From: Escherichia coli
GTDB taxonomy: Bacteria; Pseudomonadota; Gammaproteobacteria; Enterobacterales; Enterobacteriaceae
Strand: one strand, 5' to 3'
DNA length: 64,000 nucleotides
Assembly (NCBI RefSeq): GCF_003334405.1
Contig: NZ_QOWM01000003.1
Below the pieces are notes generated by a model. The model was not told the DNA's origin. It did no database searches and worked only from the letters and a program-made list of their open reading frames with translations. The translations under genes were made by a program, and so were the position numbers. Positions 25,801 through 31,842 of the stretch are shown in pieces; positions within the stretch are counted from its first letter, which is position 1; the number at the start of each line of letters is the position of its first letter.

Positions 25801-27441
25801 ATGAATACAACTCCCTCACAGCGATTAGGTTTTTTGCATCACATCAGGTTGGTTCCGTTATTTGCCTGCATTCTAGGCGGTATCTTAGTTCTATTCGCAT
25901 TAAGTTCAGCCCTGGCTGGCTATTTCCTCTGGCAGGCCGATCGCGATCAGCGTGATGTTACTGCGGAGATTGAGATTCGGACCGGGTTAGCGAACAGTTC
26001 AGATTTTTTGCGTTCAGCCCGGATCAATATGATTCAGGCCGGGGCTGCGAGTCGTATTGCGGAAATGGAAGCAATGAAGCGAAATATTGCGCAAGCCGAA
26101 TCGGAGATTAAACAGTCGCAGCAAGGTTATCGTGCTTATCAGAATCGACCGGTGAAAACACCTGCTGATGAAGCCCTCGACACTGAATTAAATCAACGCT
26201 TTCAGGCTTATATCACGGGTATGCAACCTATGTTGAAATATGCCAAAAATGGCATGTTTGAAGCGATTATCAATCATGAAAGTGAGCAGATCCGACCGCT
26301 GGATAATGCTTATACCGATATTTTGAACAAAGCCGTTAAGATACGTAGCACCAGAGCCAACCAACTGGCGGAACTGGCCCATCAGCGCACCCGCCTGGGT
26401 GGGATGTTCATGATTGGCGCGTTTGTGCTTGCCCTGGTCATGACGCTGATAACATTTATGGTGCTACGTCGGATCGTCATTCGTCCACTGCAACATGCCG
26501 CACAACGGATTGAAAAAATCGCCAGTGGCGATCTGACGATGAATGATGAACCGGCGGGTCGTAATGAAATCGGTCGCTTAAGTCGTCATTTACAGCAAAT
26601 GCAGCATTCACTGGGGATGACAGTAGGGACTGTTCGACAGGGCGCGGAAGAGATTTATCGTGGCACCAGCGAAATTTCAGCTGGCAATGCGGACCTGTCA
26701 TCTCGCACCGAAGAACAAGCGGCGGCTATCGAACAAACTGCCGCCAGCATGGAGCAACTCACTGCGACGGTGAAACAGAATGCGGATAACGCGCATCATG
26801 CCAGCAAACTGGCGCAAGAGGCTTCTATTAAAGCCAGCGATGGCGGGCAGACGGTTTCCGGTGTAGTAAAAACGATGGGCGCTATCTCCACGAGTTCGAA
26901 GAAAATTTCTGAGATCACCGCCGTCATCAACAGTATTGCTTTCCAGACGAATATTCTGGCACTGAATGCTGCCGTTGAAGCCGCGCGAGCGGGTGAGCAA
27001 GGGCGTGGATTTGCCGTTGTCGCCAGCGAAGTACGGACACTCGCAAGTCGCAGCGCTCAGGCGGCGAAAGAGATTGAAGGCTTGATCAGTGAATCAGTCA
27101 GGTTAATTGACCTGGGGTCGGATGAGGTGGCAACGGCCGGGAAAACCATGAGCACTATTGTTGATGCCGTCGCGAGTGTCACACATATCATGCAGGAAAT
27201 CGCCGCCGCCTCGGATGAACAAAGTAGAGGCATAACGCAGGTTAGCCAGGCGATTTCTGAAATGGATAAGGTGACGCAACAGAATGCTTCTCTGGTAGAA
27301 GAGGCCTCAGCGGCGGCGGTGTCCCTTGAAGAACAGGCGGCACGATTAACTGAGGCGGTGGATGTATTCCGTCTGCACAAACATTCTGTGTCGGCAGAAC
27401 CTCGCGGAGCGGGTGAACCAGTTAGTTTCGCTACGGTGTGA
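25801..27441 (+). CDS. trg: Methyl-accepting chemotaxis protein III (ribose/galactose sensor)
   Basis: 546 aa; two TM segments, HAMP and the highly conserved MCP signalling domain. Confidence 0.95.
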
Positions 27442-27454
27442 AAATGTTCAAGGA

Positions 27455-27476
27455 GGGATCGACAGATCCCTTCACC
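27455..27476. terminator. Hairpin between convergent trg and ydcI
   Basis: gggatc-gaca-gatccc followed by a T-rich tract. Confidence 0.45.
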
Positions 27477-27478
27477 TT

Positions 27479-28402
27479 TCAGAACGGCATTGATTTTCGA
27501 ATAGCGTTAATCATCAACTGGCAACCAGAAGAGAACGTCGCATCTACGCGGGTCAGTATTCCAATCGGTTCGCCTGCACCATGTCCCGGAACAGGCAGGG
27601 CCACCAGCGTGGCATGACGCAGGTCGTCTTTTACAGCGCCAGAAGGGACAAACCACACGTAATCGTATTCAACCGTAAGTTGACGAGATAGCGAAGCAGA
27701 CAGCGTTTCGATACAACCCGAAGGAATTTTACAGCCCTGGCTCTGCACTAATGCATCTGAATGCTGGCGTGGCGCAGTGCCTTCTGGTGATACAACGACC
27801 GGCCATTCCAGCACCCGGCTTAGCGTTACGTTCTCCTGAAGTAGCGGGTGATTAGGGCGGACAACCAGCTTCAACGATTCAAGAAACAGCAGTTCGTAAT
27901 TAAGCCCGGTCATCAGTTCAGGATCTGACATCCGACCAATGCCGATATCGATTTCCCCGGTTTTTAAACCCGCCAGAATCATAGGGTTACTCATTGTCGC
28001 AACTTGCAAGGTCGTCTCTTTTTGTTGCTGATGAAACTGACCTATAACCGAAGGTAATATCCCCAGTGCCGCAGTAGGTAGTGCACCAACCCTGACGACA
28101 TCATTATTAAGACCTTCTTTACGATGAAGCGACCGTCCGGCAGTGTTGATGGCGTCAAGAACTCTGACTGCATGCGTTAAAAATTGTTCGCCGGGTAAGG
28201 TAAGTTGCGCCCCCTGACGACCACGCTCAAACAAGCGAGCGCCAGTCAGCTGCTCCAGTTCATTCAATGTCTTAGAGAGCGCAGGTTGACTCAAATTAAG
28301 GGTTTCAGCCGCGCGCCCCAAAGTTCCTTGTTGTGCGACAGCTACGAATGTATGAAGGTGGCGCAAACGGATGCGCTGACTAAACAGACTATTTTTTTCC
28401 AT
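27479..28402 (-). CDS. ydcI: LysR-family transcriptional regulator
   Basis: 307 aa from the internal ATG at 28402; N-terminal HTH region; the longer track ORF is rejected. Confidence 0.85.
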   Translation of the reverse strand: MEKNSLFSQRIRLRHLHTFVAVAQQGTLGRAAETLNLSQPALSKTLNELEQLTGARLFERGRQGAQLTLPGEQFLTHAVRVLDAINTAGRSLHRKEGLNNDVVRVGALPTAALGILPSVIGQFHQQQKETTLQVATMSNPMILAGLKTGEIDIGIGRMSDPELMTGLNYELLFLESLKLVVRPNHPLLQENVTLSRVLEWPVVVSPEGTAPRQHSDALVQSQGCKIPSGCIETLSASLSRQLTVEYDYVWFVPSGAVKDDLRHATLVALPVPGHGAGEPIGILTRVDATFSSGCQLMINAIRKSMPF

Positions 28403-28618
28403 AAGCGATGTTAAAAACGAAGCGGTGTCGCTGACAAGTGAAGTTGTTTGATTATGATAACTTGATTGTAAAATATTATTAACAATTAAAGCAATTATGT
28501 TACAGCAAAATGGATAATATTGATGTTTTCGCGGCGAGATCACAGTTTGTAAATTCTTCCCGCAAGAGTGAATGCGGTTACCTACACTCCAGATTACTGA
28601 CCACTGGAGGCAGACACT

Positions 28619-29962
28619 ATGGCGAACAGCATCACGGCGGATGAGATTCGGGAACAGTTTTCGCAGGCAATGTCAGCCATGTACCAGCAAGAAGTTCCGC
28701 AATATGGCACGCTGCTGGAACTGGTAGCTGATGTGAATCTGGCTGTGCTGGAAAACAATCCTCAACTGCACGAAAAAATGGTAAATGCAGACGAGCTGGC
28801 GCGACTGAATGTTGAACGTCATGGGGCGATTCGCGTTGGGACTGCACAAGAGCTTGCTACTCTTCGGCGGATGTTTGCCATTATGGGGATGTACCCGGTG
28901 AGCTATTACGATCTCTCGCAGGCAGGGGTGCCGGTACATTCGACAGCATTTCGGCCCATTGATGATGCTTCTCTGGCGCGTAATCCCTTCCGCGTTTTTA
29001 CCTCCTTACTCCGCCTTGAGCTTATCGAGAACGAAATTTTGCGCCAGAAAGCGGCGGAGATTCTGCGTCAGCGCGATATCTTCACCCCACGTTGTCGACA
29101 ACTGTTAGAGGAATATGAGCAGCAGGGCGGTTTTAACGAAACACAGGCACAGGAGTTTGTGCAGGAAGCCCTGGAAACGTTTCGCTGGCACCAGTCAGCA
29201 ACGGTAGATGAAGAAACCTATCGCGCATTGCACAACGAACATCGGTTGATTGCTGATGTGGTCTGTTTTCCTGGATGCCATATCAACCACCTGACGCCAC
29301 GTACGCTGGATATTGACCGGGTGCAGTCGATGATGCCTGAATGCGGAATTGAACCCAAAATTCTCATCGAGGGGCCGCCGCGCCGCGAGGTACCGATTTT
29401 ACTACGCCAGACCAGCTTTAAAGCACTGGAAGAGACGGTGTTGTTTGCGGGGCAGAAACAGGGCACGCATACCGCGCGCTTTGGTGAAATTGAGCAGCGT
29501 GGCGTGGCATTAACGCCGAAAGGGCGACAACTGTATGATGATCTTCTGCGTAACGCTGGAACCGGGCAGGATAATCTCACTCACCAAATGCATTTACAGG
29601 AAACCTTCCGCACTTTTCCTGACAGTGAGTTTTTAATGCGTCAGCAAGGGTTGGCATGGTTCCGGTACCGTCTGACGCCTTCGGGTGAGGCGCATCGTCA
29701 GGCGATTCATCCTGGAGACGATCCACAGCCCTTAATTGAACGTGGTTGGGTAGTGGCGCAACCCATCACCTATGAAGATTTCTTGCCCGTTAGCGCGGCG
29801 GGGATCTTCCAGTCAAATCTGGGTAATGAAACGCAGACACGCAGTCACGGTAATGCCAGTCGCGAAGCATTTGAGCAGGCGTTGGGTTGTCCGGTTTTGG
29901 ATGAGTTCCAGCTTTACCAGGAAGCGGAAGAACGCAGTAAACGTCGCTGTGGTTTGCTTTAA
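28619..29962 (+). CDS. ydcJ: DUF1338 protein (possibly a metal-dependent oxygenase family)
   Basis: 447 aa ORF divergent from ydcI. Confidence 0.8.
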   Translation: MANSITADEIREQFSQAMSAMYQQEVPQYGTLLELVADVNLAVLENNPQLHEKMVNADELARLNVERHGAIRVGTAQELATLRRMFAIMGMYPVSYYDLSQAGVPVHSTAFRPIDDASLARNPFRVFTSLLRLELIENEILRQKAAEILRQRDIFTPRCRQLLEEYEQQGGFNETQAQEFVQEALETFRWHQSATVDEETYRALHNEHRLIADVVCFPGCHINHLTPRTLDIDRVQSMMPECGIEPKILIEGPPRREVPILLRQTSFKALEETVLFAGQKQGTHTARFGEIEQRGVALTPKGRQLYDDLLRNAGTGQDNLTHQMHLQETFRTFPDSEFLMRQQGLAWFRYRLTPSGEAHRQAIHPGDDPQPLIERGWVVAQPITYEDFLPVSAAGIFQSNLGNETQTRSHGNASREAFEQALGCPVLDEFQLYQEAEERSKRRCGLL

Positions 29963-30186
29963 AATCTGACCATCCGCCTTTGCAAAAATTTGCCTGATTT
30001 TACAAACGAATCAGGCTCATCCCATCGACATAAAAAAAATGCCGATTTATGCATATTCTCTCAGTTCAACAATTGGATTATTAATAAATATTGTCTAGAG
30101 TGAGCGGTCATAAATAAGCACTTTCTTGCCGCTGAAAACGACCAGCGCGGGACCATTCACAACACCAGAAGGACTCACTTTCAGGT

Positions 30187-31842
30187 ATGGATCGTAGACG
30201 ATTTATTAAAGGTTCAATGGCTATGGCCGCCGTGTGCGGTACCAGCGGCATTGCTTCTCTTTTTTCTCAGGCGGCATTCGCGGCAGATTCTGATATTGCC
30301 GACGGGCAAACCCAGCGTTTTGACTTCTCCATTCTACAGTCAATGGCGCACGACTTAGCGCAAACAGCGTGGCGTGGTGCGCCTCGTCCGTTACCTGACA
30401 CGCTGGCGACAATGACGCCGCAGGCTTATAACAGTATTCAATACGACGCCGAAAAATCGCTCTGGCATAACGTTGAGAACCGTCAACTGGACGCTCAGTT
30501 CTTCCATATGGGAATGGGATTCCGTCGCCGCGTTCGTATGTTTTCTGTAGATCCAGCAACACATCTGGCGCGTGAAATTCACTTTCGCCCGGAGTTGTTC
30601 AAATACAACGATGCAGGTGTTGATACAAAACAATTAGAAGGGCAAAGCGATCTCGGCTTTGCCGGTTTTCGCGTGTTTAAAGCCCCCGAACTGGCGCGCC
30701 GTGATGTAGTATCATTTCTCGGCGCGAGTTATTTCCGCGCCGTTGATGATACATATCAATACGGTTTGTCGGCCCGCGGCCTGGCGATCGACACTTACAC
30801 CGACAGTAAAGAAGAGTTCCCCGACTTTACCGCCTTCTGGTTTGATACGGTAAAACCGGGGGCAACTACCTTTACCGTTTATGCGTTGCTCGATAGCGCC
30901 AGCATTACTGGTGCCTATAAGTTCACTATCCATTGTGAGAAAAGTCAGGTGATTATGGATGTGGAAAATCACCTGTATGCGCGCAAAGACATTAAACAGC
31001 TGGGCATTGCGCCGATGACCAGTATGTTCAGCTGCGGTACTAATGAACGTCGGATGTGCGATACAATTCATCCGCAAATTCATGACTCTGATCGTCTGTC
31101 CATGTGGCGGGGCAACGGCGAGTGGATTTGCCGTCCGCTGAATAATCCGCAAAAATTGCAGTTCAATGCTTACACCGACAACAACCCGAAAGGGTTTGGT
31201 TTATTGCAACTGGATCGTGACTTCTCCCATTATCAGGACATTATGGGCTGGTATAACAAACGCCCAAGTCTGTGGGTGGAACCGCGTAACAAGTGGGGTA
31301 AGGGCACCATCGGCCTGATGGAAATCCCAACAACGGGCGAAACGCTGGATAACATTGTCTGCTTCTGGCAGCCAGAAAAAGCTGTAAAAGCAGGTGATGA
31401 GTTTGCATTCCAGTATCGTCTGTACTGGAGTGCGCAACCGCCTGTTCATTGCCCATTAGCGCGCGTTATGGCGACGCGTACCGGCATGGGCGGTTTCTCG
31501 GAAGGTTGGGCGCCAGGTGAACACTATCCCGAAAAATGGGCGCGTCGTTTTGCCGTCGATTTCGTTGGTGGTGATCTGAAAGCTGCCGCGCCAAAAGGCA
31601 TTGAGCCGGTGATTACGCTTTCCAGTGGGGAAGCGAAGCAAATCGAAATTCTCTATATTGAACCCATCGATGGTTATCGTATTCAGTTTGACTGGTATCC
31701 GACTTCGGACTCCACTGATCCGGTCGATATGCGGATGTATCTACGTTGTCAGGGGGACGCTATCAGTGAAACATGGCTGTATCAGTATTTCCCGCCAGCG
31801 CCGGATAAACGTCAGTATGTTGACGACCGCGTGATGAGTTAA
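30187..31842 (+). CDS. opgD: Periplasmic glucan biosynthesis protein OpgD (MdoD), Tat-secreted
   Basis: 551 aa; twin-arginine signal MDRRRFIKG...AFA. Confidence 0.9.

Follow-up and report, generated by a model that had tools for sequence, protein, structure and literature searches.

In a 64,000-nucleotide stretch of an Escherichia coli genome (contig NZ_QOWM01000003.1; the whole stretch is called the window), we analyzed the spacer between two divergent genes, ydcI, the gene for a transcriptional regulator of the LysR type (LTTR), and ydcJ, which encodes a DUF1338 protein and is now named hglS in RefSeq. Our main finding is that this spacer may well be the shrunken remnant of a control region of the PcaQ type and not an intact switch between a LysR regulator and its target; we give this reading a probability of about 0.5. 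A previous sequence-only reading had suggested that the pair may form a ligand-responsive switch of the familiar kind, a LysR regulator plus a divergent target, and this interpretation was partly supported. The divergent layout was confirmed, and in Enterobacterales the two genes remain together although their outer flanks change. The switch itself fared less well. YdcI is not a generic LTTR but a member of the PcaQ lineage, which in relatives adjoins pcaHG or a PcaK-like gene; the box of that lineage, ATAAC-N5-GTTAT, lies upstream of ydcJ in many relatives and is absent in E. coli; the conserved module next to ydcJ persists in genomes without ydcI; and the targets named in the main text of a chromatin immunoprecipitation-exonuclease (ChIP-exo) study of YdcI do not include ydcJ. 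Both genes, the enzyme activity of YdcJ, and the layout of an LTTR with its neighbor are already known. Apparently unreported in the literature searched are the assignment of YdcI to the PcaQ lineage, the presence of pcaHG or a PcaK-like gene at the orthologous locus of relatives, and the canonical PcaQ box that faces ydcJ in many genera and is lost in E. coli. The same literature held no report of YdcI regulating ydcJ and no link between ydcI and protocatechuate.

The divergent pair and its 216-bp gap were borne out by the open reading frames (ORFs) and the RefSeq annotation. The gap had been placed at 28402-28619; these limits take in a single base of either start codon and are otherwise right. 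Between 27400 and 30100, the sequence shows 100% identity to E. coli K-12 MG1655, and of 5426 complete E. coli genomes, 5407 have this arrangement. The gene order is trg-ydcI<>ydcJ-opgD. The elements are as follows.

27479-28402, minus strand: ydcI coding sequence, 307 amino acids, ATG at 28402..28400 (ORF list and RefSeq annotation of MG1655)
28403-28618, no strand: ydcI/ydcJ intergenic region, 216 bp, non-coding, between the divergent start codons
28619-29962, plus strand: ydcJ (hglS) coding sequence, 447 amino acids (ORF list and RefSeq annotation)

The spacer is AT-rich, with a GC content of 37.5% against 49.4% for the whole window. RefSeq annotates no other feature in the 216 bp, an Rfam scan of 27300-30300 at E <= 1 gave zero matches, and a search for inverted and direct repeats in the spacer returned two short AT-rich pairs only. 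The search for the LTTR signature T-N11-A that had been proposed with the sequence-only reading proved uninformative: 21 occurrences were seen against 20.0 +/- 3.2 in shuffled sequences, which is evidence neither way. The best dyad in the spacer has 6 of 8 pairs, a level attained by 28% of the shuffles; it was the same for the other dyads, of which none was prominent.

YdcI belongs to the PcaQ lineage

YdcI has the N-terminal winged helix-turn-helix and the C-terminal substrate-binding domain of an LTTR of about 300 amino acids. It is matched by 53 NCBIfam LTTR models, many of them over residues 9-303, and its RefSeq name is "LysR substrate-binding domain-containing protein". Our analysis places it, among LysR regulators, in the PcaQ lineage: the best family is TIGR02424 (PcaQ), matched over the full length with 287.0 bits, and the runner-up family reaches 136 bits. 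The nearest solved structures are those of the muconate sensors CatM (1e-28) and BenM (3e-21). Orthologues of YdcI score 283.6-299.5 bits on TIGR02424, and those adjacent to pcaHG reach the upper value. These scores, like that of E. coli YdcI, come close to the cut-off of 303.8 bits, fall short of it, and far exceed those for any other family. When E. coli YdcI was compared with the pcaHG-linked orthologue of Pseudocitrobacter, the identity was 80%. The two proteins should share their DNA specificity, because only two of the differences fall in residues 1-60. Given the near-identical DNA-binding domain and the form of the reported YdcI motif, an AT-rich inverted repeat with 7-nt spacing, YdcI is likely to act on DNA in the way a PcaQ-type LTTR does.

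Published work connects YdcI with several processes. In the ChIP-exo study (Gao et al. 2018), 18 sites were found; gltA, nhaA, dtpA, lldP, gltP, and yobA are named in the main text, which does not mention ydcJ as a target. The gene has been implicated in acid survival and gadBC expression and in growth on and adaptation to acetate, it is the HipQ high-persister allele, and it is lost repeatedly during adaptation to long-term starvation. A ribosome-profiling paper reported translational regulation of YdcI in acid stress. The authors of the starvation and HipQ studies called the trigger and the true regulon of YdcI unclear. In E. coli O157:H7, ydcI and ydcJ both rise on entry into stationary phase, which weakly supports the reading favored here. 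A likewise weak hint, of interest in view of the PcaQ-like ancestry and the only one for a response to a protocatechuate-pathway intermediate, is a single RNA-seq observation in which ydcI was among the seven genes most induced by vanillin (PMC5291986).

The ydcI-hglS pair across genomes

An alignment of 31 diverse HglS homologues was used to fetch hglS loci from species-representative genomes, and at least 80 loci were obtained (31 Enterobacterales, 48 non-enteric). In the loci listed, tblastn with YdcI found an orthologue (65-97% identity) upstream of and divergent from hglS in 29 of the 31 from Enterobacterales and in none of the 48 non-enteric ones. The two Enterobacterales loci without ydcI are those of Lelliottia (L006) and Erwinia mallotivora (L033). 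The outer flanks vary while the pair stays: trg, a ydeP-like gene, a gcd-like gene, or smrA occurs on one side, and opgD or a carboxylesterase-like gene on the ydcJ side. This carboxylesterase-like gene, of about 502 amino acids and with a GESAG motif, stands directly 3' of ydcJ in most non-Escherichia genera (L004, L005, L010, L012-L014, L016, L020-L022, L024-L027, and others, at about 5360-6900 of the locus); E. coli lacks it and has opgD there instead. Four arrangements of the interior were distinguished.

Type A: directly divergent genes 216-378 bp apart; 20 loci, among them Escherichia, Enterobacter, Cedecea, Siccibacter, and Mangrovibacter
Type B: a gene for a Mn-dependent pyrophosphatase-like protein inserted; Citrobacter
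Type C: ydcJ faced by pcaH-pcaG-ydcI, all three on one strand; Pseudocitrobacter, Kluyvera, and one Enterobacteriaceae isolate
Type D: ydcI facing an aromatic-acid/H+ symporter gene, then ydcJ; Pantoea

The genes inserted in type C pass their equivalog cut-offs (PcaH, 365 bits against 296; PcaG, 265 bits against 126), and the type D transporter belongs to the aromatic acid:H+ symporter (AAHS) family of the major facilitator superfamily (MFS), with PcaK as its best match. Linkage to pcaHG was thus observed at the orthologous loci L005, L007, L009, and L020 and, more loosely, to the PcaK-like MFS gene in Pantoea. The E. coli ydcI locus contains no pca genes and does not show the linkage expected of PcaQ.

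Outside the enteric bacteria, a LysR regulator of the GcvA subfamily (276 bits to GcvA) adjoins hglS in 13 of the 48 non-enteric loci listed, often divergently; it lies just upstream of locus position 4001 (L061-L067, L071, L060, L034, L057, and others). These pairs, found in Rhizobium, Ralstonia, and some Halomonadaceae, follow the same logic of a LysR gene beside hglS. They differ from the enteric pair in that the regulators are not YdcI orthologues (less than 33% identity or no tblastn match) and that hglS and its neighbors there sit within lysine-catabolic clusters, namely those for 2-aminoadipate and pipecolate.

In addition, Halomonadaceae loci (L047, L048, L050, L051, L054, L055, L058, L070) were examined 3' of hglS, at about 5400-6700. 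In most of them, hglS is followed by a gene for type II 3-dehydroquinate dehydratase (aroQ), by one for an IclR regulator of the PcaR/PcaU/PobR family (301 bits against a cut-off of 285), or by both. In these loci, hglS is thus associated a second time, and independently, with regulators of the beta-ketoadipate pathway.

The PcaQ box in relatives and in E. coli

In Burkholderiales, the recognition consensus of PcaQ is ATAAC-N5-GTTAT (PMC3572157). Among the matches listed, this sequence was found with at most one mismatch in 13 of 28 ydcI-bearing loci. Each of the three complete type C loci has an exact box between pcaH and ydcJ, and two Cedecea-like type A loci have one upstream of ydcJ; the perfect box in the Cedecea neteri spacer reads ATAACGCAGTGTTAT. 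The one-mismatch form ATAAT-N5-GTTAT occurs in six type A loci, and Pantoea has one perfect and one one-mismatch box between ydcI and the transporter gene. In the enterobacterial type A and type C loci, the center of the box lies 35-50 nt upstream of an invariant GATCACA, and alignment of the relatives showed that the box is conserved and its flanks are not.

When the 216-nt spacer was shuffled, at most one mismatch was reached in 1.65% of the shuffles and three mismatches in 80%. The best match in the spacer of E. coli K-12 has three mismatches, which is the chance level, and nothing better than three mismatches was seen in a second E. coli lineage, Escherichia albertii, the Enterobacter cloacae complex, or Citrobacter. 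A one-mismatch box inside the ydcI coding sequence (28044) was rejected as a chance match; with uniform base frequencies as an approximation, about two such matches are expected in 64 kb, and two were seen.

Three type A loci (L015, L024/25) have, beside the box, the motif of the pcaH promoter side, GTTAATTT.AAGTGAA, with pcaHG absent. Because the motif is retained without the genes, these loci indicate that pcaHG was probably lost from an ancestral arrangement resembling type C, rather than gained.

Conserved blocks and putative promoters in the E. coli spacer

The E. coli spacer was footprinted against 18 type A loci of other genera. The mean identity was 0.59 and was concentrated in discrete blocks.

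28408-28416: ydcI-proximal block, ATGTTAAAA, identity 0.93
28432-28441: ydcI-proximal block, TGACAAGTGA, identity 0.81
28443-28486: most conserved ydcI-proximal block, 44 bp, GTTGTT-N7-GATAAC (28443-28461) and AAATATTATTAACAAT (28471-28486), identity 0.84-0.87
28488-28537: poorly conserved segment, 50 bp; the equivalent in relatives is 85-210 bp and bears the box (alignments and box scan)
28538-28544, plus strand: ydcJ-proximal GATCACA, invariant, identity 1.00, holding a Dam GATC site
28549-28558, plus strand: ydcJ-proximal GTAAATTCTT, identity 0.86
28584-28590: ydcJ-proximal conserved block, ACACTCC

The 44-bp block contains the PcaQ half-site ATAAC, and in 23 of 28 loci its GATAAC keeps a constant distance of 40 nt to the start of ydcI. 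We regard 28443-28486 as a candidate autoregulatory site to which YdcI may bind. The YdcI of Salmonella reportedly binds its own promoter and autoregulates. A perfect dyad, GTTATC-N7-GATAAC, is not claimed as a defined operator; it was found in 4 of the 28 loci only, and most loci, including that of E. coli, have GTTGTT.

The two halves of the spacer behave as separate units. In types B to D, where genes are inserted, the three ydcI-proximal blocks stay with ydcI and the last three blocks with ydcJ. The ydcJ-proximal blocks persist in Lelliottia, which has no ydcI at the locus, and Erwinia mallotivora, likewise without ydcI, keeps GATCACA at a shifted position. In nearly all 31 enterobacterial loci, that of Lelliottia included, GATCACA stands some 81 nt upstream of the ATG of ydcJ, with GGTCACA in two Citrobacter loci. 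The block GATCACA...AAATTCTTC (28538-28558) was compared by eye with the sites of CRP, ArgR, FNR, and Cra, none of which fits across genera.

The promoter elements predicted in the spacer are listed below.

28408-28437, minus strand: candidate ydcI promoter, TTGTCA (28437..28432), 18 nt, TAACAT (28413..28408); promoter scan, both hexamers in conserved blocks
28431-28436 and 28453-28458, plus strand: predicted -35 CTGACA and -10 TATGAT; scan and Shimada et al. 2014
28482..28477 and 28459..28454, minus strand: predicted -35 TTAATA and -10 TATCAT; scan and Shimada et al. 2014
28583-28588, plus strand: TACACT, candidate -10 hexamer of a conserved ydcJ-proximal promoter; conservation across 31 loci
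28587-28610, plus strand: inverted repeat CTCCAG (28587-28592) / CTGGAG (28604-28609), including the ydcJ Shine-Dalgarno sequence GGAGG (28606-28610)

Genomic systematic evolution of ligands by exponential enrichment (SELEX) with RpoD holoenzyme gave a peak in this spacer, flagged for H-NS; the same report predicted TTAATA-17-TATCAT for ydcI and CTGACA-16-TATGAT for ydcJ (Shimada et al. 2014). Our promoter scan found the same sites. Their divergent -10 hexamers overlap at TATGATA (28453-28459), within the conserved ydcI-proximal block. At 28454, Escherichia and a single Enterobacter have A, and 17 of the 18 non-Escherichia type A loci have T. The A supplies both A2 of TATGAT on the plus strand and T6 of TATCAT on the minus strand, and the loci with T do not have this key base; because of this difference, the overlapping promoters look like a lineage-specific gain.

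The blocks that hold TTGTCA and TAACAT remain with ydcI when genes separate it from ydcJ. This promoter would place the ydcI mRNA start at or beside the ATG, and since no Shine-Dalgarno sequence for ydcI was found in any genus of the sample, the mRNA may be leaderless. Such a promoter without a Shine-Dalgarno sequence fits the published translational regulation of YdcI.

On the ydcJ side, the hexamer at 28583-28588 occurs in the 31 loci as TACACT, TACGCT, TACCCT, TAAACT, TACATT, or TACAGT, at a fixed distance from the ydcJ ATG. TACACT is likely the -10 element of ydcJ, because T1, A2, and T6 are invariant and the middle is variable, which is the signature of a -10 hexamer. The inverted repeat CTCCAG/CTGGAG is predicted to fold with -8.4 kcal/mol in E. 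coli, and the hairpin was found in most Enterobacteriaceae; in Siccibacter (L022), it reads CTCGTG/CACGAG, with two compensatory pairs and a shorter loop. Such a hairpin would hide the ydcJ Shine-Dalgarno sequence, only in transcripts starting upstream of 28587. In many genera, a CATG....CATG mini-hairpin was also seen over the ydcJ start codon.

YdcJ is a 2-oxoadipate dioxygenase/decarboxylase

YdcJ is a characterized enzyme and no longer an unknown family member. It scores 743.4 bits over residues 5-444 on the HglS equivalog model NF049974 of NCBIfam (cut-off 550), and PF07063/DUF1338, of the vicinal oxygen chelate (VOC) fold, was found on it and on all close homologues. The PDB entry 2RJB is a near-identical YdcJ from Shigella flexneri, matched over the full length, and the structure of Pseudomonas putida HglS, 6W1G, matches YdcJ at 1e-157. 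The sequence-only reading had placed metal-dependent oxygenases in this family, and rightly: DUF1338 proteins are oxygenases that depend on a metal and act on a 2-oxo acid. The assay on 2-oxo acids that it suggested had already been published: purified E. coli YdcJ converts 2-oxoadipate to 2-hydroxyglutarate, as D-2-hydroxyglutarate, in vitro, and 2RJB has the same motif as HglS (Thompson et al.). The homologues were taken from a search of representatives for diversity. In the 31 homologues (41-59% identity), H68, H224, and E292 of YdcJ are invariant and R72 is at least 90% conserved. This conservation suggests that H68, H224, and E292 are the His-His-Glu metal ligands. The offset between YdcJ and HglS is two residues, by which R72 corresponds to the specificity residue Arg74 of HglS. 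A 479-residue variant of YdcJ with an N-terminal extension also exists (protein P0001).

YdcJ thus resembles HglS of P. putida (PP_5260) as its equivalog, with the same in vitro reaction and a solved structure. The genomic context differs. HglS works in D-lysine/2-aminoadipate catabolism in P. putida, where lysine and 2-aminoadipate induce it, and the neighbors of non-enteric hglS are genes for 2-aminoadipate transaminase, a YdiJ-type D-2-hydroxyglutarate dehydrogenase, and AmaA/AmaB. Enteric hglS adjoins ydcI, in some genera with pcaHG or a PcaK-like gene, and none of these lysine-catabolic neighbors. Since the enteric context differs from that of the lysine-catabolic hglS of Pseudomonas, Rhizobium, and Halomonas, the role in E. 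coli may differ as well.

Proposed history of the spacer and alternative explanations

According to the reading we favor, an ancestral YdcI would have bound ATAAC-N5-GTTAT and controlled pcaHG or a transporter gene together with ydcJ. Its signal would have been a dicarboxylate of the protocatechuate pathway; a metabolite of this pathway is likelier than the substrate of YdcJ, because YdcI belongs to the PcaQ lineage and stands beside pcaHG or a PcaK-like gene. In the Escherichia lineage, two deletions, first of pcaHG and then of the box region, would have fused the ydcI promoter and autoregulatory block (28408-28486) to a self-contained ydcJ promoter module (28538-28610), which would be independent of ydcI. 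Any residual effect of YdcI on ydcJ would act through 28443-28486. As this block overlaps the back-to-back -10 hexamers, binding of YdcI to it would shut down the ydcI promoter and, at once, the upstream promoter of ydcJ. Otherwise, YdcI regulates distant genes in E. coli, such as gltA and those for proton transporters.

Several points weigh against the remnant reading. The 287.0 bits of E. coli YdcI are below the TIGR02424 cut-off of 303.8. Salmonella and Klebsiella are absent from the sample of loci, and the persistence of the pair could come partly from shared descent and not from selection. There is no biochemical rationale for HglS to accompany protocatechuate genes. The direction of change, loss or gain of pcaHG, rests on a short motif similarity at three loci. 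All promoter and start-site assignments are predictions from the sequence, and for any one transcript, TACACT as a -10 hexamer and the hairpin over the same bases are mutually exclusive.

Possibly, though we consider it doubtful, no regulatory link is left in E. coli: the adjacency would be inherited, an autoregulated ydcI promoter would stand beside an independent ydcJ promoter, and YdcI would act solely on distant targets (gltA, nhaA, dtpA, lldP, gltP, gadBC, iraP). This explanation agrees with the absence of the PcaQ box in E. coli, with the chance frequency of T-N11-A, with the conservation of the ydcJ-proximal module without ydcI, with the omission of ydcJ from the target lists in the published main text, and with the in vitro selection of the spacer by RNA polymerase holoenzyme alone and its flagged H-NS site. 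It accounts less easily for a pair that was retained through several flank rearrangements and whose genes are co-induced at stationary-phase entry. Moreover, the most conserved ydcI-proximal block coincides in part with the predicted upstream promoter of ydcJ, which YdcI would affect if it bound there.

The original proposal of a switch, taken here to mean that YdcI is a dedicated activator of ydcJ responding to the substrate or product of YdcJ (2-oxoadipate, 2-aminoadipate, or D-2-hydroxyglutarate), appears improbable. The divergent layout is as this model expects, LTTR control of hglS seems common from the 13 of 48 non-enteric loci listed with a LysR gene beside hglS, and lysine and 2-aminoadipate induce HglS in P. 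putida; but those regulators are of the GcvA subfamily and not YdcI orthologues, whereas YdcI is PcaQ-like and linked to pcaHG or a PcaK-like gene and not to lysine genes. No LTTR box precedes ydcJ in E. coli, and the enteric loci have no adjacent genes for 2-aminoadipate transaminase, AmaA/AmaB, or YdiJ. Very improbable, in our estimate, is a control of ydcJ mainly after transcription initiation, in which YdcI plays no part and a leader of about 154 nt from the upstream promoter folds so that the Shine-Dalgarno sequence is masked by CTCCAG/CTGGAG. The hairpin predicted in most Enterobacteriaceae, the two compensatory pairs in Siccibacter, and the conserved blocks between the upstream promoter and the ydcJ ATG would suit such a leader, but Rfam gave no match, the hairpin is lost in Pantoea and L013, and TAnnnT at 28583-28588 favors a promoter whose transcript starts inside the hairpin.

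Returning to the remnant reading, a tentative extension, which we put below even odds, is that YdcI is an orphaned PcaQ-type sensor that has kept its dicarboxylate pocket and, once its protocatechuate operon and the box at ydcJ were gone, been co-opted to tune persistence (HipQ), pH homeostasis, and central metabolism (gltA, proton transporters). The effectors of PcaQ are carboxymuconate-type intermediates. Taken jointly with the orphaned sensor and no less tentatively, the ligand might be an aromatic-derived or related dicarboxylate, either carboxymuconate-like or re-tuned to 2-oxoadipate/2-hydroxyglutarate. If this were true, the trigger of YdcI would be a diet- or plant-derived aromatic-acid metabolite.

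Comparison with known systems

The PcaQ systems of Agrobacterium tumefaciens, Sinorhizobium meliloti, and Burkholderia xenovorans are the closest parallel: PcaQ is the best full-length family match of YdcI, and the enterobacterial YdcI orthologues adjoin pcaHG and have the exact Burkholderiales box in their control regions. E. coli YdcI differs in its score below the cut-off, in the absence of pca genes and of the box at its locus, and in its reported action on central-metabolism and pH genes. We do not claim it as a PcaQ equivalog, because the score, the pca linkage, and the box were each tested and each fell short. The pcaHG-bearing enteric bacteria also differ, since their order is pcaH-pcaG-ydcI on one strand and not divergent. 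The pairs CatM-catBCA, BenM-benABCDE, and IlvY-ilvC share with ydcI/ydcJ the divergent regulator and enzyme genes, the short AT-rich spacer, and likely autoregulation. In E. coli, unlike in these classic pairs, no recognizable dyad T-N11-A site lies upstream of the target promoter, and conservation of the promoter module next to the target does not depend on the regulator.

As ydcI recurs in studies of E. coli evolution and tolerance (HipQ, loss in starvation, acetate adaptation, acid survival), the PcaQ lineage, the candidate box ATAAC-N5-GTTAT, and the candidate ligand class give a testable lead to the effector and the core binding site of YdcI. A pair that looks like a textbook LysR regulator plus divergent target may be a deletion scar, which calls for caution in inferring regulation from layout.

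Other observations at the locus

On the outer side of ydcI, trg converges on it, the two stop codons being only 37 bp apart (27442-27478 of the window), and ExcludonFinder lists trg-ydcI as a convergent excludon with overlapping transcripts. In the E. coli strain NZ_CP061530.1, the locus matched as two segments and hglS bears an additional "family protein" annotation, so the gene may carry an insertion or be disrupted.

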